From positions 1-64,000 of IMG/VR virus record IMGVR_UViG_3300021090_000001: DNA of 64,000 nt; one strand, written 5' to 3'. The notes beneath the pieces were generated by a model. It was not told where the DNA came from, did not search any database, and was given only the letters and a program-made list of their open reading frames with translations. This document shows positions 750 through 24,688 of the stretch, one piece after another. The stretch's first letter is position 1; the number at the start of each line of letters is the position of its first letter. This DNA comes from a virus. Position numbers and translations under genes: made by a program.

Positions 750-770
750 TGAACGGGCGTCGTACATTAT
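750..770 (+). promoter_or_regulatory. Promoter-like motif copy 1 (tgaacgggCGTCGTACATTAt)
   Basis: Intergenic. TACATT hexamer at 763-768. The GTG of the 776 ORF starts 8 nt after the hexamer, making it a leaderless candidate. Confidence 0.6.
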
Positions 771-775
771 GGGTC

Positions 776-1453
776 GTGCTGAAGCGGCTCACCAAAAGAC
801 TCAGGGCGGCCGGTGCGCGGGTCGCCCACTACGCGCTCGGCATCGCGATCGCCGAACGTCGGATCAGGCATTTCCGCCGCGAGCTGCACCGGGAGATCCT
901 GGCCGGAGGGCTCGAACTCGAACACGAGGCGAGGCTGCGAGCGAAGCTGAGGTTCTGGCGCGAACGTCGGGCCAAGCTGGAACGACTCCGAGCGGACTGG
1001 CGCGGTATCGAGCGGCGCCGCCGCAAGAAGAGGGAGAAGTGGCTGGCCGAACATCCTCCCGCTCCCGGCGATTGGCCCACCTTCGACGGTCAGCCGGTGC
1101 CGCCCTGGATGGTCGGCCAGGCGCCGAGCAAGACCCGTTCCGGCAAGACGATCGTCAAGAACTGGCTTCAGGCGCTCCGCGACCACGGCTGGGGCGGCCG
1201 GTGCATCTCGGGCATCCGCACCGAGGCCCACTCGATCGAACTGTGCGAGGAAATCTGCGGGGCGCCGTCCTGCTCGGGGACCTGCGCGGGCGCGACCTCC
1301 AACCACAACTGCAAGGGCCAATGCGCCTACCCCGAGGGTGCCGGTGACTTCACCGACCCCGACAGCTTCAACGAGGCGAGTAGGGAGATCGACTGCCCGT
1401 TGATCAACGACCTGCCGCTCGATCCCAACCACCACTCCGTGTCAGGACGTTAA
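776..1453 (+). CDS. Lysis-cassette protein: coiled-coil N-terminus plus Cys-rich C-terminal domain (possible M15-like cell-wall peptidase)
   Basis: 225 aa. Stop lies 2 nt before the GH25 gene. Segment ISGIRTEAHS...TSNHNCKG...GAGDFTD only loosely resembles the SxHxxGxAxD peptidase M15 signature. Confidence 0.55.
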   Translation: MLKRLTKRLRAAGARVAHYALGIAIAERRIRHFRRELHREILAGGLELEHEARLRAKLRFWRERRAKLERLRADWRGIERRRRKKREKWLAEHPPAPGDWPTFDGQPVPPWMVGQAPSKTRSGKTIVKNWLQALRDHGWGGRCISGIRTEAHSIELCEEICGAPSCSGTCAGATSNHNCKGQCAYPEGAGDFTDPDSFNEASREIDCPLINDLPLDPNHHSVSGR

Positions 1454-1455
1454 CC

Positions 1456-2112
1456 ATGAAGACCAGGTTCGGCATCGACATCAGCAGCTTCCAGGGGGAG
1501 CCCGACTTCCACGAGGTCGCCAAGCACATCGGCTTCCTCTTCCACCGATCGTGGATGGGTGACGTTGGCTCGAACGGAGCCCCCGATCCGAAGTTCACCA
1601 GGGAGCGGGTCCACCAGCTCCGGGTCAACGACATCCCGTTCGGTCCCTACTGTTTCGCCCGCAACAGCGGCAACTCAGGCAAGCTCGAAGCTCGCCTGTT
1701 CGTCGCCAATGCTCATGGTGCGGGCTGGGGCAAGAAAGGTGACCTGCCGGGAGTGCTCGACATCGAGACCGGCGAGGGTAGCCGCCCCGGCGTCAAGTTC
1801 GTCCGCGAATTCGCCAAGGAATACCGGCGCCTCACCGGCCACCGGGTGATCGTCTACTCCGGCAGCTTCTGGCGCGACATCCTCGGCAACCCCCTCATCC
1901 TCACCCGTTCGCGGTTCTGGCTGGCGGCCTACACCGCGACCTGGCACGGCTGGGTGCCGCGTGCCTGGAAGAAGCCGCACATCTGGCAGTACACCGACAA
2001 GGCGATCGTCCCTGGCATCTCCACGGGCGGCGTGGACGGCGACCGCTGGATTCGCTCCGAGCGCTCCTTCGCCCGGATGCGGCTTCGTCGTGATCTTGTC
2101 CTCCATGACTGA
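1456..2112 (+). CDS. Endolysin, glycoside hydrolase family 25 muramidase
   Basis: 218 aa. Shows FGIDISSFQGEPDF, LDIETGEG and HIWQYTD...GGVDGDRW, which are typical GH25 motifs. Confidence 0.9.
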   Translation: MKTRFGIDISSFQGEPDFHEVAKHIGFLFHRSWMGDVGSNGAPDPKFTRERVHQLRVNDIPFGPYCFARNSGNSGKLEARLFVANAHGAGWGKKGDLPGVLDIETGEGSRPGVKFVREFAKEYRRLTGHRVIVYSGSFWRDILGNPLILTRSRFWLAAYTATWHGWVPRAWKKPHIWQYTDKAIVPGISTGGVDGDRWIRSERSFARMRLRRDLVLHD

Positions 2113-2124
2113 AATAGGGAGGGG

Positions 2125-2505
2125 GTGAAGAAATTGATCTTCGGACACTCACTCTCCGAAACCAGGAAGACGGTCGTGGCTGGCCTCTACCTGCTGTTTT
2201 CGGTCGTGATGCTCGCGGGTTTCGTGCCCCACGTCGGCTTCCAGGAAGCCGTCCTGGCGGTCGTAGGCCCGGCCTACGGCGTCGTCGGTGTGTTCTTAGC
2301 CAAGAATCATGACCCTGCCGACCTCCAGAAGGCGCTGGAAGCGCTGAAGGCGGCATTAATGACGGCGATCTCGTTCTATGTCGCCGTACCTGAAGCAACG
2401 AACGAGTCGGTCACGCTGCTGATCACAGGCATCGTGATGGCGGTCGGCGTCTACTGGACCAGAAACGCTGGTCAAGGCGCACCCGCAACGCCGCGCGGTC
2501 CTTAA
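2125..2505 (+). CDS. Holin-like membrane protein
   Basis: 126 aa with 3-4 hydrophobic helices, immediately downstream of the endolysin. GTG start preceded by GGGAGGGGG. Confidence 0.65.
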   Translation: MKKLIFGHSLSETRKTVVAGLYLLFSVVMLAGFVPHVGFQEAVLAVVGPAYGVVGVFLAKNHDPADLQKALEALKAALMTAISFYVAVPEATNESVTLLITGIVMAVGVYWTRNAGQGAPATPRGP

Positions 2506-2521
2506 ATCCTTAAACGAACAC

Positions 2522-2542
2522 CGGACGCGCGTCGTACATTAG
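2522..2542 (+). promoter_or_regulatory. Promoter-like motif copy 2 (cGGACGCGCGTCGTACATTAG)
   Basis: Intergenic, 47 nt upstream of the ATG at 2589, which has AGGAGG upstream. Abuts the terminator hairpin. Confidence 0.55.
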
Positions 2543-2569
2543 GGGGTGGTCAACCGGCCACCCCCTTTT
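2542..2569 (+). terminator. Rho-independent terminator after the lysis cassette
   Basis: GGGGGTGG / CCACCCCC stem (2542-2549 with 2558-2565) followed by TTTT at 2566-2569. Confidence 0.7.
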
Positions 2570-2588
2570 CACGTCCCAGGAGGAAGAC

Positions 2589-3011
2589 ATGTCCGACGAG
2601 TTGCAGCAGCACGAGCAGACCGACGAGGAGCTGGCGGCGGAATTGGCCGGACGGCAGTCGGAGATCGACGCCGAAGCAACGGTCGAGACTGAAGGGACCT
2701 CCGGCGACGACACGCCCGAGCCCGAGCCGCCCCAGACGCTGCGCTCGGCCTTTCCGACCGGCCCGGCGCCAACCAACACCCACCAGCCTCCGGCCGACGT
2801 GCCGCCGATCGATGGGCTTGTTCCGACCTCCTCGGCGTCTCGGATCAGCGCCCCGCTGGGCAAGCGCGCCCGCCGGATGCAGGCCCGAGCCGAACGCAGC
2901 GCCCGGCTCAAGGCGGTTCGCGAGGAGCATCAGGCCGAGTCGATCGACACCGGCCTGCCGCTGCTGTACGAGATCGAGCGCAAGGTCCAGCCCCCGGACG
3001 GCGAGGGCTAA
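2589..3011 (+). CDS. Hypothetical acidic/Pro-rich protein
   Basis: 140 aa, ATG with an AGGAGG Shine-Dalgarno, GC3-biased frame. Confidence 0.55.
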   Translation: MSDELQQHEQTDEELAAELAGRQSEIDAEATVETEGTSGDDTPEPEPPQTLRSAFPTGPAPTNTHQPPADVPPIDGLVPTSSASRISAPLGKRARRMQARAERSARLKAVREEHQAESIDTGLPLLYEIERKVQPPDGEG

Positions 3012-3055
3012 GTCAGAACGAGCGTCCGCAGACCGCCTGTACGATCGGCCTACAC

Positions 3056-3280
3056 ATGGCGGCCTGCGGAAAATGCCACCGGGAGATCATCTGGGCCACC
3101 GGCCCGGATGGCGAAGTCCTGAAGCTGGAGGTGGCGGCCAGCTACGACGGCCCCGGCCGCTTCACCCTGCACTTCCCCGCGGGCGGCGGGCGCCCCAACG
3201 CGATCCCGCTCCTGCGTCCCGGCTACTTCGCGGGCTACCGCCCACACGACGCCGTCTGCGGCCAGGCGGTCCCAGTGTGA
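3056..3280 (+). CDS. Hypothetical small protein with CxxC motif
   Basis: 74 aa. CGKC near the N-terminus plus a distal Cys. GC3-biased. Confidence 0.5.
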   Translation: MAACGKCHREIIWATGPDGEVLKLEVAASYDGPGRFTLHFPAGGGRPNAIPLLRPGYFAGYRPHDAVCGQAVPV

Positions 3281-3579
3281 GCCAGACGGCGCGCGAGCAA
3301 GTCCGGCGCCGTCTCAGCTCGTTGGGAAAGCGCCGCAAAAAGCGGGACGCGGAGGGCGAGACGTTGGCCGACGACATCAAGGAGGCGCTGGCGGCGGCTA
3401 GGCTCGCGGGCATCCCGATGGAGGAGGCGGCAAACCGCCTCGGCCTCAACCGCACGACGCTCTACCAGGTCTACCTTGACGATGAGAACCCCGGAGGAAA
3501 CGGCGCTGGCCGACGAGCTGGCGCAGCGCCAGCGGCGCCTCGCAAACGAAGCGGCACCGCCCCAGCTGCCACCGGCTGA
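3277..3579 (+). CDS. Helix-turn-helix DNA-binding protein
   Basis: GTG at 3277 overlaps the upstream TGA. IPMEEAANRLGLNRTTLYQVY is HTH-like. The low-complexity tail overlaps the next ORF by about 100 nt. Confidence 0.45.
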   Translation: MSQTAREQVRRRLSSLGKRRKKRDAEGETLADDIKEALAAARLAGIPMEEAANRLGLNRTTLYQVYLDDENPGGNGAGRRAGAAPAAPRKRSGTAPAATG

Positions 3580-3967
3580 CGACCTCGGCTGGGGCCGCGG
3601 CGCCTTCAGCGCCCGCCTACGGCTCCTGGCCGACTGGCCGCCCGAGTACATGTCGATGCCCGGCAAGAGGCCGCCGAGGCGCTTCAACGCCCTGACGTGG
3701 CTCCAGGCGCTATGGCCTAGCTTCCCCCAGCAGTTCACCGAGGTCGTCCCCGACGAGTTCTGGTCCTGGGCCGAGTGGGACGGCGTTACCCAGGAGGACC
3801 GGGTCGCCGTGGTCGCCTGTGTGTGCGGCGCCGAGCCCGAGGTCGAGCAGAACCGGACGGCGATCTGCGAGGGCCGCTGCGGGCGGGTCTTCATGCTCAT
3901 CGGCGATGTGATCCGCGTCGCCGAATTCGAGCCCGGCGAGCTGTCCCCCTCCTCGTTGCAGGCGTAA
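3476..3967 (+). CDS. Hypothetical protein (C-terminal Cys cluster)
   Basis: 163 aa, TTG at 3476 or ATG at 3482. VVACVCGAEP...CEGRCG. GC3-biased. Confidence 0.55.
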   Translation: MTMRTPEETALADELAQRQRRLANEAAPPQLPPADDLGWGRGAFSARLRLLADWPPEYMSMPGKRPPRRFNALTWLQALWPSFPQQFTEVVPDEFWSWAEWDGVTQEDRVAVVACVCGAEPEVEQNRTAICEGRCGRVFMLIGDVIRVAEFEPGELSPSSLQA

Positions 3968-3970
3968 AAG

Positions 3971-3991
3971 CCAACCGGCGTCGTACATTAG
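3971..3991 (+). promoter_or_regulatory. Promoter-like motif copy 3 (ccaaccggCGTCGTACATTAG)
   Basis: Intergenic, 38 nt upstream of the ATG at 4029. Confidence 0.55.
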
Positions 3992-4028
3992 AAGCATGCG
4001 CTCCCGCCTCGACGCAGTCGATTAACCA

Positions 4029-4367: not shown

Positions 4368-4376
4368 GAGATCACC

Positions 4377-5698: not shown

Positions 5699-6375
5699 TG
5701 GCTGAAGGCGAAGCGGCACCGGGACCGACGCAATCTTTTGAAGTGGACCTGCCGGTCGGCGGCGGCAAACTGCATCTCCTTTCGGCCGAGGAGGTCACCA
5801 TGTGGGAGACGGCGGCTACCAACTACCGCTCCGACTATGGGCTGACCAAAACGAACGACCTGGTCCTGCTCGGTGCCCTCCTCACCCAGCAGCTTGCGAT
5901 GTTCCGAGCCCAGCAGCGGATCAACGGGATGGAGCCCGTCCTCGACTCAGAAGGAGTACCGACCGGCAAGTACAGAGTCGTCACCCTGAAAGCGACTGAG
6001 CTGGCCGCCGCGAGCGAGACGGTTCGCAAGGCAGGCAAAGAGATCAGGGAGATCGAGCAGGCCCTGGGGATTGACAAAAAGAACCGCGAGGCCGGTGGGA
6101 CTCAGACCGTTCAGCAGTACGTGACGACCCTGAAGCGGGCGGGGAACGAGTACGGCGTCCATATCTCCAAACGCACGTTGGCATATGAGAGGTTCTGCAT
6201 GGCGCTTCGCACCAAACTCCGCATCCTCCAGAACGCCGACGAGGAGGACAAAGCCTACGAGGGTGTGTCCGGGGAAGCGATCTTGAACTGGTCCCGCGAC
6301 GGGCTGGCGAAGCTGGAAGAAGTGGACAAGGAATTCGCCAAGGAGAAGGGCCGCTTAGTTGTCGGCAAGCTCTAA
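5698..6375 (+). CDS. terS: Putative terminase small subunit
   Basis: ATG at 5698 overlaps the HNH TGA (TGATG); the ORF track begins at 5668. Called by position between HNH and TerL and by its size of about 225 aa. Confidence 0.5.
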   Translation: MAEGEAAPGPTQSFEVDLPVGGGKLHLLSAEEVTMWETAATNYRSDYGLTKTNDLVLLGALLTQQLAMFRAQQRINGMEPVLDSEGVPTGKYRVVTLKATELAAASETVRKAGKEIREIEQALGIDKKNREAGGTQTVQQYVTTLKRAGNEYGVHISKRTLAYERFCMALRTKLRILQNADEEDKAYEGVSGEAILNWSRDGLAKLEEVDKEFAKEKGRLVVGKL

Positions 6376-9109
6376 CCTGGTCCATGTCGAGGGGCATGAC
6401 CCGAAGCTCCACGGTCCCTACGCGGCCGAAGAGGGATGGGTGATCGACGCCGACGACCTCCTACTCATCGCCCTGCTGCGCGACCCGGTGTATGGCCCGG
6501 AGCTGACCTGGCGCGACGCTGCCAATCATGAGTACGCCGGTTGTTACCGGGCGATGGATTACCAGTACCCACTCTTCAGGGTGGAAGACAACTACGCCGG
6601 GTTCGCGTGCGCGCGGTCGGTGGGGAAGGCCCTGGCCGATTATATGCACGTATTGACCCCCAGTGGCTACGTTCGCATGGATGAAATCGAAGTGGGTGAC
6701 TTCGCGATTGGCTCGGACGGTAAACCGACTGAAGTCCTCGGGGTGTACCCTCAGCAGGGAAAGCGGGAGCTGTATCGGGTCGCATTCACCGACGGAACAT
6801 TCGTGGATTGCGATGGCGATCATCTCTGGACGGTTACCTGCGATAGCTGGGAGGCGAGGGGAACTGGACCGAAAACTCTGACGCTGCATGACATCCGTTG
6901 GCGCAAGGCCAGGTTCAAAGTGCCGCTGCCCAGCGGCCCAGTGGAGTTCAAGCCTCTCGCGCCGCCTCATATTGATCCCTGGGCGGCAGGGGCACTGCTA
7001 GGAGATGGCAACCTTACTCCGCGTTCGATGGTGCGCTTCGCGAGTATTGACGACGAGAACGTGGCCCGCTTGCAGGCCGCCCTGCCCGAAGTAGACGTGG
7101 TTCACGATGGCGGCTGTAATTACAGACTTCGGTCAAGCGGCCCTAAGCCGGGGCCATGTGAAGCGCTCACCTGGAGCAGGCTCACCGGCCTGGCGGGGCG
7201 AAGCTCTCTGAGGAAGTTCATTCCAGATGAATTCCTCTGGGGCTCCGTTGCGGTAAGGACCGAGCTATTACGCGGGCTCGTTGACACCGATGGCTACGTG
7301 ACTCATGCGGGGAGCATCGAAGTTAGTACCTCCTCTCCTCAGTTGGCAGAGGACATTAGGCAGTTGGTTCTTTCGCTCGGCGGAAGATGCTCGATCAAGA
7401 TGCGACATACCACCCACGCTGATGCGTATCGAGTCGTATTCCGCATTGATGGGATTTTACCTTGTCACCTGACCCGGAAGAAAACGACCTATGAAGCGCT
7501 TCAGGACCAGAGGACCAGGGCAACCGAGTTTCGCCTGATCGACTCGATACGGCCGATTGGTCCTGGGATGGCGACGTGCATTGAGGTCAACAATACAAAC
7601 GGCCTCTTCATGACCGAGGACATGGTACTAACCCACAACACCGAGAGCATCAAGGCCCGCGCCTTCGCCCACGTCTTCAAGCGGGTCAGCGAGAACATGC
7701 TGATCACGGCGCCAGAGCTGATCCACCTTCTGCCGCTGACCGAAGCGATCGAGGACCGCATCCTCGACACCAGGATCAGCCGCGACTTCCTCGACACGCG
7801 GGGCGGCAAAACCGGGCTCACCCACCGTCCGTTCGGCGCCGAGTTCTACGACGGCACCAGGCTGGTCGGCCGCATCCCGAAGATCACGGGAACCGGCGTC
7901 AAGGGTCAGCACGAGCCGGACATGGTGATTGACGAGGCCCAGGACTACCCCGAGAAAGGGTGGACCGAGATCCACGAGACGGTGATCAAGGATCACACCG
8001 ACAAGGAAGGCAACCCGGATTTCACCTACCACTTCTTTGGAGTCCACTCGGGCGACCGCGACAGCGGCTTCTTCAAGTCCATCAATGATGGTGCCTTCAA
8101 AGTCATCACGATCACCGCGATCCAGCGGCCGGGCTGGTCGAAAGCCGAGAAGGACGCGGCCAAGGCCCGTTACGGCGGCACCCAGAACCCTGACTACCGC
8201 CGCAACATCTATGGCGAGCCCGGCGCCGCTGCCTCGGCGTTCTTCGTCACCGCCCGGCTCATGGCCTGCGTGGACCAGGGACCTCCCGGCAAGCTGCCTA
8301 CCGACTCCGACTACAACACGCTTCAGTACGTCAAACAGCAGCTCCGCGCCGAGGAGGTCGATGAACTTCGTCTGCCGATGAACGAGGTCCTGGACCTGCC
8401 CGATTCCTATGGCAAGCTCTATATCGGCGCCGACCTCGGGCTCACCAACTCCCCCACTGTCGTCTCGGTCTTCTCTCACGAGAAAGTGAAGAACGTCGAA
8501 CGACTGAAGCTAATCCGCCTGTACGAACTCCACCGCTTCCGCACCCGCCAGATCAGGGAGTGCTTCAGCACCCTGGGCTGGCACTTCGGCTCGGCGATGC
8601 AGTCCTTCGGGATCGACATCACTGGGCTCGGCTTCCCGATCTGGCAGGAAATGGAGGACGATGAGAACGTACCTCAGCGCCTGCGCGACGTGAGCCGGGG
8701 CTACTTTTTCAACGCGAAGGTCCCGGTAAACGTGGACAAGGATCACATCACCAAGGACGAAGCTGGGCGGATGCGAGATCAATACGGTGCGTCGGTCGAG
8801 GTCGAGACCGACGAGTGGGGACAGGAGCGGCTGGTGACCAAGATGCCGATGATCGAGGCCAGTACCCGCTATCTCCGCGAGTTCGTGGACTCCGGCTTCC
8901 TGATGCTCCCCTTCGACAAAGCGATCACCACCGACATGCAGGGCGAGACTCAGCAGCGGGTGCGCGCGGTCGGCGATAAAGCGCGCAAGCCTAACGCTTT
9001 CCACATTCTCGACTCCTTCCGGGGCATGGCGATGGGCTTCAAGGCGGGCGAGGTCGAGGAGGCGCTGGCGGTGAGCAAACCGGCGCCGGTCTTCGACATC
9101 GCGCTGTAG
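6359..9109 (+). CDS. terL: Terminase large subunit, interrupted by an intein in the Walker A motif
   Basis: 916-aa ORF. The exteins join as ARSVGK|TESIKA, restoring a GKT P-loop. Position is upstream of the portal gene. Confidence 0.9.
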   Translation: MSASSNLVHVEGHDPKLHGPYAAEEGWVIDADDLLLIALLRDPVYGPELTWRDAANHEYAGCYRAMDYQYPLFRVEDNYAGFACARSVGKALADYMHVLTPSGYVRMDEIEVGDFAIGSDGKPTEVLGVYPQQGKRELYRVAFTDGTFVDCDGDHLWTVTCDSWEARGTGPKTLTLHDIRWRKARFKVPLPSGPVEFKPLAPPHIDPWAAGALLGDGNLTPRSMVRFASIDDENVARLQAALPEVDVVHDGGCNYRLRSSGPKPGPCEALTWSRLTGLAGRSSLRKFIPDEFLWGSVAVRTELLRGLVDTDGYVTHAGSIEVSTSSPQLAEDIRQLVLSLGGRCSIKMRHTTHADAYRVVFRIDGILPCHLTRKKTTYEALQDQRTRATEFRLIDSIRPIGPGMATCIEVNNTNGLFMTEDMVLTHNTESIKARAFAHVFKRVSENMLITAPELIHLLPLTEAIEDRILDTRISRDFLDTRGGKTGLTHRPFGAEFYDGTRLVGRIPKITGTGVKGQHEPDMVIDEAQDYPEKGWTEIHETVIKDHTDKEGNPDFTYHFFGVHSGDRDSGFFKSINDGAFKVITITAIQRPGWSKAEKDAAKARYGGTQNPDYRRNIYGEPGAAASAFFVTARLMACVDQGPPGKLPTDSDYNTLQYVKQQLRAEEVDELRLPMNEVLDLPDSYGKLYIGADLGLTNSPTVVSVFSHEKVKNVERLKLIRLYELHRFRTRQIRECFSTLGWHFGSAMQSFGIDITGLGFPIWQEMEDDENVPQRLRDVSRGYFFNAKVPVNVDKDHITKDEAGRMRDQYGASVEVETDEWGQERLVTKMPMIEASTRYLREFVDSGFLMLPFDKAITTDMQGETQQRVRAVGDKARKPNAFHILDSFRGMAMGFKAGEVEEALAVSKPAPVFDIAL
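6629..7639 (+). mobile_element. Intein (337 aa) with LAGLIDADG homing-endonuclease domain; Ala1, class-3-like W/C/T triplet
   Basis: Begins ALADYMHVL and ends VLTHN followed by Thr+1. LLGDGNL and LRGLVDTDGYV are LAGLIDADG motifs. Triplet residues: W67 (DHLW), C317 (ATCIEV), T335 (LTHN). GC looks lower than in the exteins. Confidence 0.85.
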
Positions 9110-9179
9110 GCACCCGGTGTGTGTTCGCTCACGAAACACACCCATCCCGCTCCTCAGCCCGTTCGGGTCCCATCGGTCA

Positions 9180-9206
9180 AAATTGATAGCTTGCAGCTAT
9201 CAATTT
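9180..9206. repeat. Perfect AT-rich palindrome (AAATTGATAGCT tgc AGCTATCAATTT)
   Basis: 12-bp arms with a 3-nt spacer, inside the 240-bp non-coding gap after terL. Confidence 0.8.
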
Positions 9207-9350
9207 CAGCCCGAAAACGGCCTTTGTGAGCGAGATGTGGGCGGGCCTCACAAACACGCCTAACACTCGTTCAGAGTTGCGGGCGCTATAGCGCTGTAGC
9301 TGTAGGATCATCCGACAGATGGCGCAGCAGCAGCCACTTCGGGAGGCCCG

Positions 9351-9846: not shown

Positions 9847-9867
9847 CCGACGGGCGTCGTAAATTAG
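9847..9867 (+). promoter_or_regulatory. Promoter-like motif copy 4 (CCGACGggCGTCGTAaATTAG)
   Basis: TAAATT at 9860-9865. The portal GTG at 9872 starts 7 nt after the hexamer, a leaderless candidate. Confidence 0.6.
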
Positions 9868-14157: not shown

Positions 14158-14870
14158 TGAGCGCCAGCTTCACCCTCACGCTCGATACCCAGACGAGCGT
14201 TGAAGCTTCTATCAACGGCGGCAAAGCCGACACCGAAAGCTCGACGGTCACGCTCGAACTGGTGCTCGATGCCGACGCGGCGCTGGTCAAAGTCTGGGGC
14301 ACCATCAACCCGCTCGACCCGGCCAACGCCGGGTTCGGCGAGACCGAAGAAGGCGCCGAATGGATACCGGCGGCGAGCAGCTTCCTGGTCCACACGACGA
14401 CCAATCCCGGCCAGAAGACGCTGCACGTCCTGGTCCGCGACGACGTTGACAACGAGGCCCAGGACGAAGCCTCGATCACCCTCCAGGGCGAAGGCCCGCC
14501 GATCCCGCCGCCGCCGCGCCCGAGCCAGGCTCCTTCCCCAGCCGGTGGTCCGCCGCATCCCGAGCACCGCCCCGAGCGCCGCCGCATCTCCTCGATCATT
14601 CGCGTCGGCCGCGTCCGCGACCACGCCTCCCTTGAATGCAGACCGAATGCAAATCGCATTCGGGTCCGGGCTCCCAGGGTGAGCGCCGGGATTCTGGTAG
14701 CGCACCATATTGTGCCTGTGCAAGTCCAGACGCTGGTTGAGACTTCTGTCTCGGCGAGGCTCGCTGGAATGCAATCTGCATTCGTCGTGCATCCCAGGGT
14801 CTCCTCTCAGGTTGCCCGCCGCGATGGCGAGGACTTCCTGGCCGTCCTCGACTCCCTCGGCATCCTCTGA
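14157..14870 (+). CDS. Ig-like domain protein, paralog of 14897 ORF (3' half doubtful)
   Basis: The first 115 aa or so align with the 14897 ORF (FxLTLDT, VKxWG, TEExxEW, KTLHxxxRDDVxNE). The remainder is Pro/Arg-rich with weaker GC3 and two hairpins. Confidence 0.5.
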   Translation: MSASFTLTLDTQTSVEASINGGKADTESSTVTLELVLDADAALVKVWGTINPLDPANAGFGETEEGAEWIPAASSFLVHTTTNPGQKTLHVLVRDDVDNEAQDEASITLQGEGPPIPPPPRPSQAPSPAGGPPHPEHRPERRRISSIIRVGRVRDHASLECRPNANRIRVRAPRVSAGILVAHHIVPVQVQTLVETSVSARLAGMQSAFVVHPRVSSQVARRDGEDFLAVLDSLGIL

Positions 14871-15607: not shown

Positions 15608-16924
15608 ATGCCCACCGCCCAGGCGCAGCCCCACGTATTCGAGAGCGGCGACAAGATTTACCTCGTCTCGCCGATTTCGCCCTTCCAGCCCGCCAGCGGG
15701 GAGATCGAGGAGTTCGCCTTCGCCGAGAATCTGAAGCGCCAGGCGCCCAACGAGAACCTGCTGTGGCTGAAGGGCAACTACGTCGAGGCCGACAAGCCGA
15801 ATCTGAACGGCCACCAGTGGACCGCATCCGGCCTGTCGATCGCTTCCCTCACCCCGATGTTCTGCCCGGTGACGGTGATGCACGATCCCCGTACGGCGGT
15901 CGGGCTCATCGCCGATACCCAGCTTCGGGTCCCCGAGAAAGACAACGTGCCCCGAGCCCGGATCGAAACTGCGCTGGCGATCTGGGCGCATCGCTTCCCG
16001 AAGGTCGCGGAGGAGGCGATGCACAACTACGAGGCCGGGATGTTGATGCAGTCGATGGAGTGCTTGTCGCCTTATTACTCCTGCGTCGATTGCGGCCGGA
16101 CCTTCCACAAGCTGCCCGAAGAAGGGGAGAAGGCCCAGTGGTGCGCGCACCTATCTGAAAGTCCCAACGCGGGTCGTATATTAGGAGGCGTCACCTTCAC
16201 GGGCACCGGACTTATTTTCGGATCGCGCGGAGCAGAGGGGGCTTACACCGAAGCCTTCCTGGAGACGGCGGTCAGAGAAGAGATAGTCGCGGCCCACCAA
16301 GAGCTTCACCAAGCATCTAGCGATCCAAGACCGAAATCGAGGAGCAGAAAAAACATCATGGACATCGACCAGGCGAAATACGACGAACTGATGGCTCGCC
16401 CCTCGAAAGAGGAACTGCTCGCCGAGCGTGATCGCGCCGACAAAGAGAAACAGCGTGCCGACAAAGCAGAGCGCGACTTCGAGGCCGAGGAGACGGCGAA
16501 AAAAGCTCTCGAAACCGCCAACGCCGATCTGAAAGCGGCCAAAGAGACGGCCGAGGAGACGGCGCGCAAAACCGAGATGGCGGGCACTCGCCTCGCCGGG
16601 CTCGGCAAGGACTTCAAGGGCAAGCTCGGGGAGAAAACCTCCGAGCGCCTGACCGCCCAGGCCAAGGACTTCTCCGACGAGGAGTGGGAGGCCCGGCTGG
16701 TCGAACTGGAGGAGGTCACCGAGGTCAAGCGGGACGCCGGGGGCGTCTCCACCGAGGCGGCTTCCACGGTCCCCGGCGACGGCAATGTCTCCATAGCAGA
16801 GACGGCCTCCGCTCGCGTCGGCGCCACGCCGAACAACGGCTCGACCCCGAGCGCGCCCGCGCGGTCCTCGGTGGTCGGCGGGCTCGTCAAACGGGTCGGG
16901 GTACCCCCGGCCAAGGCCGAGTAA
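15608..16924 (+). CDS. Putative prohead protease / scaffolding fusion protein
   Basis: 438 aa. Globular N-terminal domain of about 240 aa with a CVDCG...C..H insert. The C-terminal half is a charged coiled coil (KEELLAERDRADKEKQRADKAERDFEAEE...). Located just upstream of the capsid gene. Confidence 0.55.
   Translation: MPTAQAQPHVFESGDKIYLVSPISPFQPASGEIEEFAFAENLKRQAPNENLLWLKGNYVEADKPNLNGHQWTASGLSIASLTPMFCPVTVMHDPRTAVGLIADTQLRVPEKDNVPRARIETALAIWAHRFPKVAEEAMHNYEAGMLMQSMECLSPYYSCVDCGRTFHKLPEEGEKAQWCAHLSESPNAGRILGGVTFTGTGLIFGSRGAEGAYTEAFLETAVREEIVAAHQELHQASSDPRPKSRSRKNIMDIDQAKYDELMARPSKEELLAERDRADKEKQRADKAERDFEAEETAKKALETANADLKAAKETAEETARKTEMAGTRLAGLGKDFKGKLGEKTSERLTAQAKDFSDEEWEARLVELEEVTEVKRDAGGVSTEAASTVPGDGNVSIAETASARVGATPNNGSTPSAPARSSVVGGLVKRVGVPPAKAE
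16164..16184 (+). promoter_or_regulatory. Promoter-like motif copy 9, internal to protease/scaffold ORF (ccaacgcgggtcgtatattag, 18/21)
   Basis: 18 of 21 positions match the consensus. The next in-frame ATG is at 16358 (M251), at the start of the coiled-coil half. Confidence 0.4.
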
Positions 16925-17622: not shown

Positions 17623-18561
17623 ATGGACGCGGCAATATTCGACATCCTTCAGCAGGTCAACGCTGAGCGGGACGAGGTCAAAGCGGCCGAGCTGAAAGCC
17701 GGTACCAACAACCAGCTCGGACAGCACTTCCAGCGCAACACGCCGGATCTGGAAGAGTTCGCTTTCGACCTGCTCAACCAGGTCTGGGCGGATGCGATGG
17801 TGGAGGACATCCTCCCCCAGATCATCGAGCGGAAAACGGTGGGCCTCGGCGAGACCGACTACGTCGAAGAGGACCTGCGAGGGCTCACCGCTTACTGGCA
17901 GGGCAAAGGCGGCGAGATCTACTCGGATGTCATCCGCTACGAGCGGAGCCAGATGCCCCGCGAGGAGATGGTGACCGCCCTGGACTTCCACCAGGACGAG
18001 ATCATCACCGACTTCTGGGGTGCGTTCGACAAGCTCGTCGGCCAGGCCCGCGAGAAGCTGGGCCAGCTCCCAACCCTCAAACTGGTCGAACTGATCCAGA
18101 GCGTGATCGTCTCGGGCGCCACCTTCGGCCAGTTCGCCGCGACCACCTTCTCGGACGATCAGTTCGATCCGATCCTCGAAGAAGTAGCCCTCCGTTCGAA
18201 GGGGAACGTGACCATCGTCGGCACCCGCCCGGCCCTTCGCCACATGGCGAACATCGGCCTCGAATACGGCAACAACGTTGCGGAACAGATTTTTCGCACC
18301 GGCCAGATCGGGGTCTACAAGGGCTATGGGACGGTCCTCGTCCAGAACTTCGAGGACTTCGCCGGTAACTACGTCCTGCCCAACGACGAGCTGTGGCTGG
18401 TCGGGCAGAACGCCGGGCGGCTGACCTACTACGGCGACGTGGCGAAGGTCCAGCAGCTCGCCCTCCCCAGCTTCATGAAGCGGTGGGAAACGGCTCGGGA
18501 TGCGGGAATGCTCCTGTATGGAGCCGAAAAAGGTCGGATCGGGCGGATTCGCCTCGTCTAA
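17623..18561 (+). CDS. Major capsid protein
   Basis: ATG at 17623 after CAGGAGGAA; the ORF track starts at 17359. About 312 aa. Follows the scaffold gene and is followed by a strong terminator. Confidence 0.7.
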   Translation: MDAAIFDILQQVNAERDEVKAAELKAGTNNQLGQHFQRNTPDLEEFAFDLLNQVWADAMVEDILPQIIERKTVGLGETDYVEEDLRGLTAYWQGKGGEIYSDVIRYERSQMPREEMVTALDFHQDEIITDFWGAFDKLVGQAREKLGQLPTLKLVELIQSVIVSGATFGQFAATTFSDDQFDPILEEVALRSKGNVTIVGTRPALRHMANIGLEYGNNVAEQIFRTGQIGVYKGYGTVLVQNFEDFAGNYVLPNDELWLVGQNAGRLTYYGDVAKVQQLALPSFMKRWETARDAGMLLYGAEKGRIGRIRLV

Positions 18562-18589
18562 CCACTTCTCGGGCGAAAGGTAGCTTCAA

Positions 18590-18624
18590 GGGTCGGGTCC
18601 TCTTCGTCGGGCTCGGCCCTTTTT
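18590..18624 (+). terminator. Rho-independent terminator after capsid gene
   Basis: 11-bp stem (18590-18600 with 18609-18619, including G-U pairs) followed by TTTTT at 18620-18624. Confidence 0.7.
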
Positions 18625-19357: not shown

Positions 19358-19360
19358 GCA

Positions 19361-21341: not shown

Positions 21342-21345
21342 CCTG

Positions 21346-21831
21346 ATGGCCGTCAACCGAGAGACGAAAGTCGAGACGAGCGTTCAGACCTATGCGATGG
21401 CGCGGCTACGCGCCGATGGCTGGTCCGAAGATCGCCTCACCTTCCTGGAGGAGTTCCCGCACTATGGGTTTTTCGACGGCGACCTCACCACCAACTACTG
21501 CGCGTTCGGCTTCAACTTCGATGACCAGGGCCGCCCGGCCGAGCTGGGCTCGGCGCTGCGTAAACGCATCTACACCCTGGAGTTCTTCCTCTTCGGCCAG
21601 GACGAGCTGAACGCGAAGTCGGCGGCCAACGACATCAAGTTCGCCCTCGACGTGGACGAGATCGTGCCACTGCTCGACGTGGGAGAGATGGGGATGCCGC
21701 CGGTCGATGCCCTGCTGGTCAAAGGCGCCAGCGCCCAGAAAGTCCTGATCGCCGATCCCAAACCGTTCGAGCGCCACGTCTGGTTGGCGACGGCGCGCGT
21801 GGAAGACGAATACTACCCAGCGGCGCCCTGA
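21346..21831 (+). CDS. Putative neck/tail-terminator-type protein
   Basis: Internal ATG at 21346 of track ORF 21208..21831. 161 aa. Called by position. Confidence 0.5.
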   Translation: MAVNRETKVETSVQTYAMARLRADGWSEDRLTFLEEFPHYGFFDGDLTTNYCAFGFNFDDQGRPAELGSALRKRIYTLEFFLFGQDELNAKSAANDIKFALDVDEIVPLLDVGEMGMPPVDALLVKGASAQKVLIADPKPFERHVWLATARVEDEYYPAAP

Positions 21832-21850
21832 GCCCGAAGGCCCAGGGCGC
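21823..21850. terminator. Bidirectional hairpin between convergent genes
   Basis: GCGCCCTG / CAGGGCGC outer stem plus GCC/GGC inner stem. Overlaps the TGA of the plus-strand gene and lies 7 nt from the minus-strand gene stop. Confidence 0.5.
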
Positions 21851-21856
21851 ACTCAG

Positions 21857-22132
21857 CTAGCCGATATCGCTCGGGCCTTCGGGTCCGCCGGGCCGGTCTG
21901 CCGGAGTCGCGGTGCGGGTGGCATCGACGTGGATGCCGTCGTCCACCAGCTCGATCTGCTGCACGTCGAAGTACCAGCTATCACGCTTCGTCTCGGCCTT
22001 CTTCGGCGTCTTCGGCGTCAGATTGATCTGGGTGCAGCCATTGAGGTAGGTGATCGTCGCCGTCGCGATCCCCATAAAGCCGGAAACCTTGTCCTGGTAG
22101 CGTTTTCCGAGGACTACTTCGTATGCCTGCAT
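21857..22132 (-). CDS. Hypothetical small protein (moron)
   Basis: ATG at 22132 preceded by GAGGAGGGAC. 91 aa. Opposite strand to the flanking structural genes. Confidence 0.6.
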   Translation of the reverse strand: MQAYEVVLGKRYQDKVSGFMGIATATITYLNGCTQINLTPKTPKKAETKRDSWYFDVQQIELVDDGIHVDATRTATPADRPGGPEGPSDIG

Positions 22133-22490
22133 GTCCCTCCTCTGGTTGTTGGGTCGGCCTACAAAGCGCGACCCTAGCAGCATCTGCTAACTTCCCGGCA
22201 AGGCGATATGTGTAGCTGGCTCGTTCGTCGTCTCGGGCGAACGGAACCGCAATCTGAGTCTGAGGGCGCGACCCCTTCTCAGGTAGACAGCAACTGAGCC
22301 TTTGCTCGGCCGCTCCGTGGTGACACTAGCTGGGATTGCAATCGCAGCGACTCACTCCCACGGGGCGGTCGGCTTATGTCGGGCCAGGCGTCCGCCCGCT
22401 ATGCGCCTCGCCAGTCCACGGACGAACGGGGTTGCACGCAACGCTCCCAGTAGCGGGGTAGGGCCTGGAGGGGCGTCCGCGTCTGAACTG

Positions 22491-22514
22491 GGGGCGCGGC
22501 GCCCCTTCTCGGTT
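22491..22514 (+). terminator. Plus-orientation intrinsic-terminator-like hairpin
   Basis: GGGGCG cgg CGCCCC stem-loop at 22491-22505 followed by TTCTCGGTT. The U-rich tail exists only on the plus strand, yet no plus-strand CDS lies upstream. Confidence 0.4.
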
Positions 22515-22761
22515 AGAAGACATCGATCGGGATGCCCTTGTACTCCGTGACCCGCCCCGACGCTCGCGGGAAGAGAAACTTGACAACGTCCCGGTTGAGC
22601 CGTTCGAAGATGTCGCCGGTCTGATCGAGACGGAGCCGGATCGCCGGGGGCGTCGTCGCCCTCTCCAACTCGTACTCGCCGATTGCCCAATCCAGCATCT
22701 CCAGGTTGAGCACGTGGGGCGGCACTCCGCGCAGGTCCAGGTCGAGGTCGGCGGGCGTCAT
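22513..22761 (-). CDS. Hypothetical small protein (moron)
   Basis: 82 aa with very strong GC3 bias. ATG lies within a perfect 14-bp inverted repeat. Confidence 0.6.
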   Translation of the reverse strand: MTPADLDLDLRGVPPHVLNLEMLDWAIGEYELERATTPPAIRLRLDQTGDIFERLNRDVVKFLFPRASGRVTEYKGIPIDVF

Positions 22762-22794
22762 CCGGTGCTACAGGGTACGGTGTAGCACCGGATG
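22759..22794. repeat. Perfect 14-bp inverted repeat CATCCGGTGCTACA-n8-TGTAGCACCGGATG (operator-like)
   Basis: Both arms end in ATG when read outward. Spans the start codon of the 22513..22761 gene. Confidence 0.8.
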
Positions 22795-23042
22795 ACGCAG
22801 CTCCTCGTCGCCAAGAACCTCCAATCGCCACCCCGCCAGGCGACCAAGCAGGAGACCTGCGTCCACTGGATGGTTGACACCAACGCCTCCTGCGGCGGGC
22901 GGCGATTCCAGCGCTGCGCTCATTGCGGAAAGTCCGGCTCGCGCCCGACCCGCAAAGACGAACGCGTCTCCTGATAGGGCCGAACGTCTGTCGGGCGATG
23001 CTACAGTCGCGCCGTTCTGGTCCAAGCAAGGGAAGGAGCAGT

Positions 23043-23441
23043 ATGAGGAGTAAGAAACTGGTAGGGGTGCTTCTGGCGCTCGTGATCGCCATCGCGTCGT
23101 TTGGTCTGAGTGCGTGCGGCGACACCGACGCCGACGTGGCCTCCGAGAACCTGTCGAAGGCGGCCGAGCAGTTTGAAATCGAGCGGCGGGTGGTGTTCTT
23201 CAACGGCATCACCGACAAATACCTGCTGTCCATCGAAGGGCTGTGCAGCATCGAGGACGAAGGTCGCCAGCTCGAAGTGACCTGCAAACTGCCGGACGGC
23301 AAATTCAAGAAGAATTATCTCGGGCTCTCAGACAACGTCTCCTATTTCGTGGAGCAGATGGGTACCGTTGAAGTAAGCACCAGTCAGTATCGCGTGATCT
23401 TTAAGCCGGAGTCGATCGTTCCCGACTTCGACCGCCCGTAG
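23043..23441 (+). CDS. Secreted lipoprotein (moron; superinfection-exclusion-type candidate)
   Basis: ATG at 23043 after GGGAAGGAG. Signal peptide KKLVGVLLALVIAIASFGLSAC with a lipobox Cys. Confidence 0.8.
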   Translation: MRSKKLVGVLLALVIAIASFGLSACGDTDADVASENLSKAAEQFEIERRVVFFNGITDKYLLSIEGLCSIEDEGRQLEVTCKLPDGKFKKNYLGLSDNVSYFVEQMGTVEVSTSQYRVIFKPESIVPDFDRP

Positions 23442-23454
23442 GGCAAACCGCCGC

Positions 23455-23485
23455 GCCGCGCCCGGAGTAGGTGACCGGGCGCGGC
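23455..23485 (+). terminator. Hairpin after lipoprotein gene
   Basis: 11-bp GC-rich stem (GCCGCGCCCGG / CCGGGCGCGGC) with a 9-nt loop. Weak U tail. Confidence 0.45.
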
Positions 23486-23521
23486 TTACGGGCGGCCAGG
23501 AGGGGCGCTAGTATCCGGGGT

Positions 23522-23692
23522 ATGCCGGGCGATTTCATCCACGCGAGCAACCCCGAGATCTTCATCCAGGTCCCTGAGCTGGGCACTGGGGTCGCCGGTC
23601 TAAGTCTGAACGAGCGTGGTGATTTAGTCGCCTGGGAGAAGGTGGGCGACGTGACCAAGATCGAGATCATGGTGGCGCCGGGGGAGGACTAG
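23522..23692 (+). CDS. Hypothetical small protein
   Basis: Internal ATG at 23522, 8 nt after a TAGTAT hexamer (leaderless candidate). 56 aa. Confidence 0.45.
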   Translation: MPGDFIHASNPEIFIQVPELGTGVAGLSLNERGDLVAWEKVGDVTKIEIMVAPGED

Positions 23693-24436
23693 GTGCCCGG
23701 CGCCTTCGTCCCCCCGCCCTACGAAGAACTAGCTCCCAACGGGCGTCGGTATTTCAAGATCCTCGGCGTCTCGCGGCACCTGATCCGCATGTATGAGCTG
23801 CTGCTCGACGCGAGCGACCTGGCGGCGGTCCGCCCCGGCGGCACCGGCCGCGCGCAGGCGGTGGAAATCGATCGGCTAATAGCCCGCGTCCGCGCTGAAG
23901 TCGAAGACAACGGCCGCAAGACCGCCGTCGAGTCGATCAGGCTGATCCAGGATGCGATCGAAGCGACCCGCGTCCGCCCCCAGGGCCAGCAGCGGCTGCT
24001 CAACGCGATCGAGTCCATGGTGGTCCCCTCGATCCTCGGCGCCGGAGCGGGCGCAGTGGGGGTGGGCGATATCGAGGCGCTGGAGCGCGGCACCCTGGCG
24101 CCCAGCGCGCGCTCCAAGGTCCCCTTCTATTGGCGGGCTCAGGAGTTCGGCTCCGACCACCTGGTCGGCCACACGCTCTACGGCGTCTTCCAGCCCGGCA
24201 GCGCCCCGCCCGAAGGCCCTGGGCCGAATCGAACTCACCCCTTCTTCGAGGTCCGCTCCAGCTCCCCCAGCTACAAGATGGTGGTCCGCAACCCGATCGA
24301 GGAACGCGGCTTCTTGCGCTCGGGCGCTTTCGAGGCGTACGAGTTCCGGCGCGGGCTCCACAGGGTGACCGAGGGCAAAGCGGTCGCCACGATGGACCGC
24401 ATCGCCAGCGGCACGATCCTCCCCCGCCGCAAATAG
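23693..24436 (+). CDS. Putative tail completion / HK97 gp10-like neck protein
   Basis: 247 aa, GTG start. The YWRAQEFGSDHLVG region resembles the gp10-family core. Called partly by position before the tail genes. Confidence 0.5.
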   Translation: MPGAFVPPPYEELAPNGRRYFKILGVSRHLIRMYELLLDASDLAAVRPGGTGRAQAVEIDRLIARVRAEVEDNGRKTAVESIRLIQDAIEATRVRPQGQQRLLNAIESMVVPSILGAGAGAVGVGDIEALERGTLAPSARSKVPFYWRAQEFGSDHLVGHTLYGVFQPGSAPPEGPGPNRTHPFFEVRSSSPSYKMVVRNPIEERGFLRSGAFEAYEFRRGLHRVTEGKAVATMDRIASGTILPRRK

Positions 24437-24443
24437 GAGGCGA

Positions 24444-24484
24444 CCGCCCCGAGCCTCGCGCTTGACCTCGCGGGCTCGGGGCGG
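24444..24484 (+). terminator. Strong hairpin (first of a tandem pair)
   Basis: 16-bp stem with one bulge (CCGCCCCGAGCC-T-CGCG / CGCGGGCTCGGGGCGG) and an 8-nt loop. Confidence 0.55.
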
Positions 24485-24525
24485 AAGCTGCCGAACTTCG
24501 ACCTCCTCAGATTCTACAGGCCTCT

Positions 24526-24556
24526 GCCGGAGCGCGCCCAGTCCACGCGCTCCGGC
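24526..24556 (+). terminator. Second hairpin of tandem pair
   Basis: 11-bp stem GCCGGAGCGCG / CGCGCTCCGGC with a 9-nt loop. Confidence 0.5.
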
Positions 24557-24667
24557 GGTGAGGGTGGGGCTTCAACCCGAGGCCAGTCTATAGCCCCGAT
24601 CGCTGCTCAACCCCGGCGAGGGTGCCGACCGTCCTTCGGCTTCCAGCATAGCTCATAGCTGAAACAT

Positions 24668-24688
24668 CCGACGCGCGTCGTACATTAT
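24668..24688 (+). promoter_or_regulatory. Promoter-like motif copy 8 (CCGACGCGCGTCGTACATTAt)
   Basis: Intergenic, after the two hairpins and 33 nt upstream of the ATG at 24721, at the head of the tail operon. Confidence 0.6.

Follow-up and report, generated by a model that had tools for sequence, protein, structure and literature searches.

Phage-specific classes of late promoters that are read with the help of a phage sigma factor are known as a kind. The late promoters of bacteriophage T4 (TATAAATA) are read by gp55 together with gp33 and the sliding clamp (gp45), and a near-invariant -10 element of 8-9 base pairs (bp) is sufficient for their function, with no -35 element. In the RinA/ArpU/Ltr superfamily of Gram-positive temperate phages, a small sigma-like phage protein, typically an activator that works at one promoter upstream of terS, switches on the packaging, morphogenesis and lysis genes. 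Apart from T-12, A-11 and T-7 of the -10 hexamer, the cellular promoters that precede leaderless genes in Actinobacteria vary in sequence. Leaderless mRNAs and small leaderless open reading frames (ORFs) are common in mycobacteria (PMC4633059), and the gp36 sigma factor of phage phiEco32 has been linked to a single element, AATGTA, centred at -11.5 (PMC12276001) and also given as TAATGTATA (PMC4331800). Here we analyze a 64,000-nucleotide (nt) stretch of viral DNA (positions 1 to 64,000 of the IMG/VR record IMGVR_UViG_3300021090_000001; hereafter, the window) that contains nine copies of a short element which, judging from its distribution, conservation and position relative to genes, is very probably a late promoter, and a gene for a putative sigma factor that is a candidate for its reader.

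A preliminary description of the window listed eight strong copies of a 21-mer in intergenic DNA and one more within a gene. When the window is searched with this 21-mer (CCGACGCGCGTCGTACATTAG) at no more than three mismatches, eight matches are found, all on the plus strand (starting at 2522, 3971, 9847, 14867, 15583, 16164, 18635 and 24668), compared with 0 expected from 100 shuffles; the copy at 750 (TGAACGGGCGTCGTACATTAT) lies beyond this limit only through its left end and differs by 1 mismatch from the 13-mer CGTCGTACATTAG. All the copies are thus accounted for, but not all of those described as intergenic are cleanly so, given that the copy at 14867 overlaps the stop codon of the upstream gene. 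By exact-protein look-ups, we placed the window on an 87.8-kb contig (ENA ERZ27267809 k141_2036348; also JGI Ga0184615_10000036) with a terminal overlap of 141 bp, and rebuilt from these overlapping loci, the overlaps of which contain no mismatch, a complete circular genome of 87,693 bp. In the complete genome, the core of the motif, CGTAnATTA, is present nine times on the plus strand and 0 times on the minus strand, and even the shorter GTAnATTA occurs nowhere besides these nine sites. All nine cores lie between positions 750 and 24688 of the window, that is, in the lysis, packaging, head and tail module; the scan of the complete genome detected no core in the early divergent region, the small-gene block, the block of replication and glycosyltransferase genes, or the minus-strand block. 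The possibility raised in the preliminary description that the motif might be equally common inside genes does not hold: eight of the nine copies are intergenic in a genome of which 7.3% is intergenic (binomial P = 7e-9). Scanning IMG/VR for the exact 14-mer GCGTCGTACATTAG gave single, apparently chance matches only, and a scan for the E. coli-type -35/-10 consensus gave counts at or below the shuffle level, which is uninformative in a GC-rich genome.

Neither megablast with 25 kb of the window nor blastn with the protease-capsid region produced a nucleotide match among 50,697 GenBank phage records, and relatives were therefore found through proteins. The 312-amino-acid (aa) capsid protein (PF27364; gene 17623-18561, plus strand) has more than 500 homologs at E <= 1e-10, mostly on soil-metagenome contigs, many of which are 80-90 kb long. 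Relatives were sampled by taking 10 kb on each side of capsid homologs (55 metagenome loci, 1 locus from a metagenome-assembled genome (MAG) and 36 IMG/VR loci); the first comparative set comprises 502 kb, including 82 kb of the present genome, the second consists of 21 further non-redundant IMG/VR loci (317 kb), and both together amount to ~820 kb from ~70 related metagenomic phages. CGTAnATTA occurs on the capsid strand 112 times in the first set and 82 times in the second, and 0 times on the opposite strand in either, so that the strand bias seen in the window (9:0 in the complete genome) becomes 194:0 across both sets. Each of the 24 single-mismatch variants of the core, in the first set, occurs 0-4 times on the capsid strand, about equal to the opposite strand. 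The core is invariant in ~200 sites even though the capsid proteins of the phages that carry it are only 50-90% identical.

The logo of the 112 sites of the first set (numbered such that the -10 hexamer spans -12 to -7) extends the core by T at -15 (88/112), by G or C at -5 and by G at -4 (87/112); the third base of the hexamer is free. The information content is ~0 from -45 to -26 and at most ~0.26 bits per position from -25 to -16, that is, the profile contains no family-wide -35 element. The family-wide element is accordingly described here as a predicted 12-bp extended -10 element, T(-15)CGTAnATTA(G/C)G(-4), with TAnATT as the putative -10 hexamer. The preliminary description had joined a TANNNT hexamer to a short palindrome, GACGnnCGTC, within a 21-bp motif. 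The hexamer stands, but the palindromic half is specific to one clade and the general element is 12 bp long: the upstream half reads (G/A)ACGcn(c)GTCG in the clade of the window and g(c/g)CGCTCG in a second clade, and fits neither pattern in others. In several sites downstream of the capsid gene, a terminator stem reaches the core at about -17, which leaves no room for upstream elements at those sites. We rejected GACGnnCGTC as the operator of a dimeric regulator for the whole class, because the dyad is clade-specific, and with it the suggestion that a palindrome-binding dimer is the general reader, since GCGCTCG or a terminator stem takes the place of the palindrome elsewhere. Position -17 of the dyad is variable while its partner at -20 is not, and GAACGnnCGTC occurs 12 times in the genome (1.7 expected under a first-order model), with most copies intragenic. 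The clade-specific bases from -16 to -23 could represent a second layer of specificity that co-evolves with the sigma factor or with a partner protein.

When the DNA downstream of the sites in the relatives was compared with the window proteins by blastx, the sites turned out to occupy orthologous positions. They precede the portal gene in 15 loci, this genome and 14 relatives (one locus has two sites), lie at the start of the protease-scaffold gene in most loci that cover this position and within that gene, at codon ~190, in 29 genomes, and precede the post-capsid gene in 12 loci and the tail operon in 17 loci, where leaders are ~30 nt. The interpretation of the motif as a promoter thus survives the comparative tests of strand specificity, orthologous position and start-codon spacing, as does the reported placement of the copies upstream of late genes, where the flanking sequences show the spacings described. 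The copies in the window and the associated features are listed in Table 1.

Table 1. Copies of the predicted late promoter element (P1-P9) and associated features in the window
Feature	Positions	Strand	Description
P1	750..770	+	TGAACGGGCGTCGTACATTAT; hexamer 763-768; GTG of ORF 776-1453 lies 7 nt downstream of the hexamer
Lysis cassette headed by P1	776-1453; 1456-2112; 2125-2505	+	225-aa ORF; GH25 endolysin; membrane protein
P2	2522..2542	+	CGGACGCGCGTCGTACATTAG; hexamer 2535-2540; leader of ~41 nt with AGGAGG Shine-Dalgarno before ATG 2589
Terminator-like hairpin	2542-2570 (hairpin 2542-2566)	+	GGGGGTGGTCA-ACCG-GCCACCCCC followed by TTTT; 3' of the lysis cassette
P3	3971..3991	+	CCAACCGGCGTCGTACATTAG; hexamer 3984-3989; ATG 6 nt downstream
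P4	9847..9867	+	CCGACGGGCGTCGTAAATTAG; hexamer 9860-9865; portal GTG 9872 lies 6 nt downstream of the hexamer
P5	14867..14887	+	CTGACGCAGGTCGTACATTAG; overlaps the TGA stop of gene 14157-14870
P6	15583..15603	+	consensus copy, CCGACGCGCGTCGTACATTAG; protease-scaffold ATG 15608 lies 6 nt past the hexamer
P7	16164..16184	+	CCAACGCGGGTCGTATATTAG; intragenic, within ORF 15608-16924
Internal Shine-Dalgarno and in-frame ATG	16339-16344; ATG 16358	+	GAGGAG; the ATG opens the coiled-coil scaffold part (MDIDQAKYDEL...), 176 nt past the P7 hexamer
Intrinsic terminator	18588-18621	+	13-bp stem and T run; 3' of the major capsid gene, 14 nt before P8
P8	18635..18655	+	CCGACGCTCGTCGTACATTAG; leader of ~34 nt with AAGGAG Shine-Dalgarno before ATG 18695
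P9	24668..24688	+	CCGACGCGCGTCGTACATTAT; before the tail operon (24721-24984, 24981-26222, tape measure 27582-32480, onward)
Element upstream of the sigma gene	53827..53853	+	GAACGTCCGTC-N3-GGTTG-N-TAACCT; extended -10 TGcTAACCT at 53845-53853, 10 nt before TTG 53864
Candidate reader	53864..54505	+	213-aa sigma-70-family, ECF-like protein; sigma2 and sigma4 domains, disordered linker 105-140

The first ATG or GTG to open a long ORF lies at one of two preferred distances from the hexamer: 36 sites fall in the range 5-10 nt (mode 6-7; 21 ATG and 15 GTG, each opening an ORF of at least 40 codons), and 20 sites, which have Shine-Dalgarno sequences of their own, in the range 28-42 nt. The pattern T-12, A-11, T-7 is present at all ~200 sites as TAnATT, and the start codons cluster 6-7 nt downstream, where transcription would be predicted to begin. 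In the case of the portal and the protease, protein homology begins at the codon located 6-8 nt past the hexamer; hence, these codons are real starts, and there is no room for a Shine-Dalgarno sequence. The leaderless spacing reported for the ORFs at 776, 9872 and 15608 is borne out, with 7, 6 and 6 nt, respectively, between the hexamer and the GTG, GTG and ATG codons. The 36 closely spaced sites have the sequence hallmarks of leaderless mRNAs, and the spacing suggests that the transcripts start on the first base of the start codon. The ATG at 14897, downstream of P5, which opens the gene of an immunoglobulin-like (Ig-like) protein (phrog_10898), lies 11 nt past the hexamer and would leave a very short leader. 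The ATG downstream of P3, in the leaderless position, opens a 9-codon mini-ORF (3996-4025; MRSRLDAVD) with a stop codon 3 nt before ATG 4029; it is possibly an upstream ORF of the leaderless kind, coupled to the gene that follows. The public call for the portal gene starts at ATG 9887, and GTG 9872 is in the leaderless position; in nearly all relatives, a start codon is located 6-9 nt past the hexamer, so the true start is probably 9872. The contiguous conservation over ~21 bp, ending in TTAGGG, prompted us to consider a T7-like promoter, which we rejected: the genome has no RNA polymerase gene, and the start codons lie 6-8 nt, not 1-2 nt, past the hexamer, a geometry that speaks against initiation at the TTA|GGG junction in the manner of T7-like promoters.

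The intragenic copy P7, which had been listed as an 18/21 match inside a gene, appears to be a conserved functional site and not a degenerate one. It is read in frame as CGT-ATA-TTA-GGA (R-I-L-G), and the codons involved are rare in this genome (TTA, 1.1% of Leu; ATA, 4.2% of Ile; CGT, 8.7% of Arg). The DNA motif is kept in 29 of 29 genomes, written as CGT-A[T/C/G]A-TTA, while the residue encoded with the free base may be I, T or R and is followed by either G or R, as the motif permits; such a combination of rare codons and a retained DNA motif with a changing amino acid implies selection on the DNA, not on the protein. No start codon directly follows the sites of this type; in its place, there is a conserved valine codon (GTC or GTA). 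Most of the 29 relatives also retain, ~155-185 nt past the intragenic site, an ATG in the same frame and, before it, a strong internal Shine-Dalgarno sequence of the form AAGGAG or GAGGAG. From this arrangement, we infer a nested scaffold gene (the region 16339-16924) with its own putative promoter, P7, the transcript of which would run on into the capsid gene. In the C/Nu3 pair of phage lambda, the scaffold is similarly produced from an internal in-frame start within the protease gene, whereas the nested gene described here apparently has its own conserved intragenic promoter ~165 nt upstream, an arrangement that, to our knowledge, is not known for lambda.

The terminator-like hairpin at the end of the lysis cassette is positioned such that the predicted start of P2 transcripts, near 2547-2548, falls within its 5' arm. 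The overlap would matter for folding, with -31.1 kcal/mol for the complete hairpin and -8.8 kcal/mol for RNA that starts at 2548 and does not include the 5' arm; if these predictions are correct, read-through from P1 should stop at the hairpin (2542-2566) and P2 transcripts should escape it.

The gene at 53864-54505 is the only recognizable gene for a component of the transcription machinery in the complete genome, and its identification as a sigma factor in the preliminary description proved correct: the product is a real member of the sigma-70 family resembling the extracytoplasmic function (ECF) sigma factors. It matches Sigma70_r2 and r4_2 weakly and exceeds the TIGR02937 cut-off (48.9 vs 42.9 bits); in a profile comparison with PDB, the ECF sigma CnrH ranks first (1e-6); and the AlphaFold model, with a confidence (pLDDT) of 72, consists of two helical domains and a disordered linker and has, as its top Foldseek hits, almost exclusively sigma factors. 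The gene is the last one of the plus-strand block, convergent with the block of winged helix-turn-helix (wHTH) and integrase genes, and is syntenic in three diverged relatives (L124, L125 and L126). The sigma family comprises 161 clusters at 50% identity (E < 1e-30), and a scan of IMG/VR with peptide patterns from the sigma alignment confirmed one distant locus; tblastn with the 213-aa protein found nothing at E <= 0.01 in the 50,697 GenBank phage records, a set that is expected to contain phiEco32 and 7-11. No RNA polymerase gene was found in the complete genome, in which the largest ORFs with no assigned function reach at most 708 aa and none matches an RNA polymerase family; likewise, when the 85 small ORFs were compared with Pfam and PHROGs, none matched a sigma factor, a WhiB-like protein or an RNA polymerase.

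The sigma gene itself is preceded by a different type of element, which places two half copies and a partial relative of the motif outside the late class. The half copies at 40568 and 53827 had been counted with the motif, but share only its left part and do not contain the invariant AT-rich core. L124 and L125 share with this genome the block in front of the sigma gene, (G/T)AACGTCCGTC-N3-GGTTG-N-TAnCCT-N10-TTG. The left part of this block, AACGnnCGTC, equals the left half that the late promoters have in one clade, and this shared half may mark a second DNA-binding factor that acts at both the sigma gene and the late promoters. The site before the wHTH gene, taken previously for a relative with 9 of 13 matching positions, is TGCTACATT (54944-54952, minus strand), a TGn extended -10 of another class. 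TGCTAnnnT sites are located before the sigma gene (53845-53853, plus strand), the wHTH gene (minus strand), gene 23043 (plus strand) and the MoxR gene (~66650, minus strand, outside the window), and are probably the promoters of this phage that are used by the host sigma factor. The two classes differ at -14, -13 and -6, with TCG in the late class in place of TGn and A at -6 in the late class. In the region 40513-40609, the half copy CCGACGCTCGTTCAAAGGTAG, which lacks the late core, lies between a strong hairpin (40509-40539, -29 kcal/mol) and the gene for a PD-(D/E)XK nuclease (40609); this looks like a terminator and a promoter of another class.

Taken together, these observations are best explained, with a probability of about 0.6, by a class of extended -10-only late promoters that would be read by the host core RNA polymerase carrying the phage ECF-like sigma factor encoded at 53864-54505. 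Under this model, each late promoter would consist of a single extended -10 element and would not need a -35 element; the polymerase would melt the AT-rich hexamer and initiate 6-8 nt downstream. At most sites, the start base would be the A or G of the ATG or GTG codon, giving rise to leaderless mRNAs, as predicted for the first gene of the lysis cassette, the portal and the protease-scaffold, and at the post-capsid and tail-operon sites, a leader of 30-40 nt with an ordinary Shine-Dalgarno sequence would be made. The P7 transcript would carry the internally initiated scaffold and the capsid gene, thereby raising their dose relative to the protease, and the terminators 3' of the lysis cassette and of the capsid gene would set the transcription units apart. 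The promoter of the sigma gene itself, with its TGn-type extended -10, would presumably be read by the host primary sigma. The phage sigma appears to be the most economical reader because the core is invariant across hosts and clades, because a temperate phage must keep its late genes silent in the lysogen, because no operator is conserved, and because there is precedent in phiEco32 gp36 and T4 gp55.

Several points weigh against this interpretation. The sigma gene and the late promoters are found paired in one genome only: the loci recovered from the relatives, which reach 10 kb from a known protein, never cover both the sigma locus and the late region of the same contig, and the capsid-centred loci contain no sigma gene. 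Furthermore, ECF-type sigma factors as a rule depend on a -35 element, spaced ~16-17 bp away, and none is seen here. A canonical ECF (group 4) promoter combines a -35 of the (G)GAAC type with a -10 of the CGT/GTC type, ~16-17 bp apart, and nothing is conserved family-wide between -45 and -26; reading GAAC as the -35 and CGTC as the -10 was tried and rejected, given that these words are only 2-3 bp apart in the clade of the window. The TAnnnT pattern (A-11, T-7) is the signature of primary (group 1) sigma factors and the usual signal of leaderless genes in Actinobacteria, so a host sigma could be reading the hexamer. The start points, the late timing and the pairing of the sigma factor with the promoters are all inferred from sequence. 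In addition, the relative L130 has no copy within 10 kb upstream of its terminase gene, which implies that the signal is not needed by all late genes; the sites P1-P3 may be lineage-specific.

The host primary sigma, of the SigA/HrdB type, is the alternative that calls for the closest comparison. It would read the sites as strong -35-independent -10 promoters, of the type found in front of leaderless genes in Actinobacteria, with late timing imposed by a repressor on the clade-specific half or by a small phage protein, and the phage sigma would serve other targets. The fit of the hexamer to TANNNT, the classic leaderless spacing to the start codons and the absence of the -35 element that ECF-like sigmas usually require are all in line with such an arrangement; so is the upstream half (A-22 C-21 G-20 ... 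G-16 T-15), which is dyad-like in the clade of the window and of which a copy (AACGTCCGTC) is kept upstream of the sigma gene in three genomes, hinting at a separate DNA-binding factor. Promoters of this sigma are normally degenerate, however, and here eight specified positions are invariant in ~200 sites, among them C-14, G-13 and A-6, which lie outside the hexamer; the likely host-type promoters of the same phage carry TGn, not TCG; and a temperate phage with an integrase would have to keep nine strong host promoters repressed in the lysogen, even though the upstream half is not conserved and a terminator stem takes its place at some sites. We therefore regard recognition by the host sigma as unlikely, if a serious contender.

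The motif might not be a promoter at all. As a signal in RNA, it would either take the place of the Shine-Dalgarno sequence, like the start-associated sequences of the Cluster K mycobacteriophages, or be a processing site at which polycistronic RNA is trimmed to leaderless ends, and it is true that it lies 6-9 nt before many starts that have no room for a Shine-Dalgarno sequence and ends in the purine-rich AGG. This AGG, however, is separated from the start codon by just 3-4 nt, which is less than a Shine-Dalgarno sequence requires, and the start-associated sequences of Cluster K are always found immediately upstream of the start, whereas here 20 sites precede, by 28-42 nt, starts with a separate Shine-Dalgarno sequence and 29 are intragenic, with no start codon nearby and a valine codon (GTC or GTA) following. 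Sites located directly 3' of terminators, and an AT-rich TAnnnT at the right distance from the first transcribed base in DNA of 63% GC, fit DNA melting. On all these grounds, an RNA signal is very improbable. Repressor-binding "stoperators" of the type described in mycobacteriophage L5, at which the prophage repressor blocks elongation, share with the motif many asymmetric copies in one orientation relative to transcription, short intergenic gaps and a temperate carrier. The stoperators of L5 are spread over both genome arms, change with the immunity group and have no set position relative to start codons. The copies described here occur in the late module only, at fixed distances from start codons, and resemble a -10 element; their core does not change even between very distant relatives, whereas immunity specificity would lead one to expect the reverse. 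This explanation is extremely improbable.

With the phage sigma as the preferred reader, the system comes closest to phiEco32 gp36 and the sigma factor of Salmonella phage 7-11 with their middle/late promoters. In both cases, a distant phage-encoded member of the sigma-70 family goes together with a short, highly conserved, low-copy element in the -10 region, no conserved -35 element has been described, and the structural genes depend on these promoters, with early genes depending on host-type promoters; as expected of such a single-element system, there are nine copies in the late module, an invariant core and a sigma gene that is syntenic in relatives. In contrast to phiEco32, the sigma factor has no detectable sequence relationship to gp36, the motif is TCGTAnATTA(G/C)G, the phage is a temperate, high-GC siphovirus-like one and not a lytic coliphage, and nine promoters, most with predicted leaderless mRNAs, are distributed across the late module, with no gp79-like partner identified. 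The T4 late promoters are similar in having a near-invariant -10-only element and a small sigma-like specificity factor, but gp55 consists of the region-2-like part only and depends on gp33 and gp45, whereas the protein described here has both sigma2 and sigma4; no clamp, gp33 analog or link to replication is evident here, and T4 mRNAs have leaders. The leaderless promoters of Actinobacteria have the same geometry, with TANNNT ending 6-8 nt before the ATG or GTG, which provides the first transcribed base, and with no Shine-Dalgarno sequence; the difference is that here C-14, G-13, A-9, T-8 and A-6 are invariant as well, T-15 and G-4 are strongly preferred, and the motif, although shared by a whole phage family, is found in a single module. 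With RinA/ArpU/Ltr, the likeness lies in the small sigma-like protein of a temperate siphovirus that would serve the late genes; here, there are nine dispersed promoters and a protein that scores as a bona fide member of the sigma-70/ECF group, and the family annotation of the window genes gave no RinA/ArpU match for the 53864 protein.

The gene content of the genome points to a temperate, ~88-kb siphovirus-like phage from a soil metagenome. The annotated genes include those for the GH25 endolysin, a terminase with a LAGLIDADG intein, the portal, the Ig-like protein, the protease-scaffold, the tape-measure protein, DnaB, the PD-(D/E)XK nuclease, a block of glycosyl- and methyltransferases, a tyrosine integrase, a RuvB-like ATPase and a MoxR/VWA pair. 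The host is probably an actinobacterium, the sole hint, from a scan of genome collections, being a 6-kb contig with a capsid homolog that is binned in an Actinomycetota MAG. A search against Rfam found no RNA genes; ARAGORN predicts tRNA-Trp (25212-25290) and tRNA-Tyr (63155-63237) inside protein-coding genes, with no Rfam tRNA at the gathering threshold, and these are probably false positives. The large terminase subunit (6359-9109, 916 aa) contains a LAGLIDADG/Hom_end homing-endonuclease domain at residues ~288-352, which is probably part of an intein; relatives match query residues 20-916 over 1668 bases (556 codons). The 242-bp gap 3' of the terminase gene is AT-rich and contains a perfect 12-bp inverted repeat, AAATTGATAGCT-N3-AGCTATCAATTT (9180-9206), which could be a packaging site or an operator and is flanked by two more inverted repeats (9125-9135 with 9223-9233, and 9242-9254 with 9338-9350). 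A 1.2-kb island within the structural module (21831-23043) resembles a moron: it consists of two minus-strand genes (21857-22183 and 22513-22761; GC content at third codon positions of 0.81-0.87) and long stretches of non-coding DNA. The ends of the ENA contig also fall in this island (near 22362). Just before the sigma gene, the region 47466-53797 holds four glycosyltransferase genes (two GT2, one GT2-like and one GT4) and two methyltransferase genes, and is syntenic in L124 and L125. In the divergent early region of the same genome, outside the window (positions 2816-3479 of locus L127), a ~23-bp repeat resembling GATAGTCGCCGACCCGTTACCGG is present in four copies, two per orientation, within a 663-bp gap between divergent gene blocks, followed by a promoter-like site, TTGACA-N17-CAGACT, in front of a 390-aa gene; this region could be an origin, a partition site or a switch region.

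What appears to be new in this system is the unrelated sigma lineage, the 12-bp element, the systematic leaderless expression of virion genes predicted across a large uncultured family and the conserved intragenic promoter of the nested scaffold gene. We tentatively propose, as a possibility somewhat short of even odds, the full combination, in which a two-domain ECF-like sigma acts on a single extended -10 element of 12 bp, makes no contact with a -35 element and places the transcription start on the start codon, such that a whole family of uncultured soil phages, hundreds of genomes in all, would express its virion genes in leaderless form, including transcription from the intragenic promoter of the nested scaffold gene. 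The analysis provides a map of predicted promoters, terminators and leaderless starts for a large phage family that comprises more than 500 capsid clusters, is represented in metagenomes only and has no nucleotide similarity to any GenBank phage. With its strand ratio of 194:0, the invariant 9-mer is an easily applied and nearly error-free guide for the orientation and annotation of related contigs and for the correction of start codons that gene callers miss, such as that of the portal gene. Should the phage sigma prove to be the reader, ECF-like sigma factors working on a -10-only element would be known from two unrelated cases, which bears on how minimal sigma factors melt DNA with no -35 anchor, and the system would offer an orthogonal pair of a 12-bp promoter and a sigma factor for high-GC Gram-positive hosts. 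For the phages themselves, the conserved intragenic promoter would represent one way to set the ratio of scaffold to protease.

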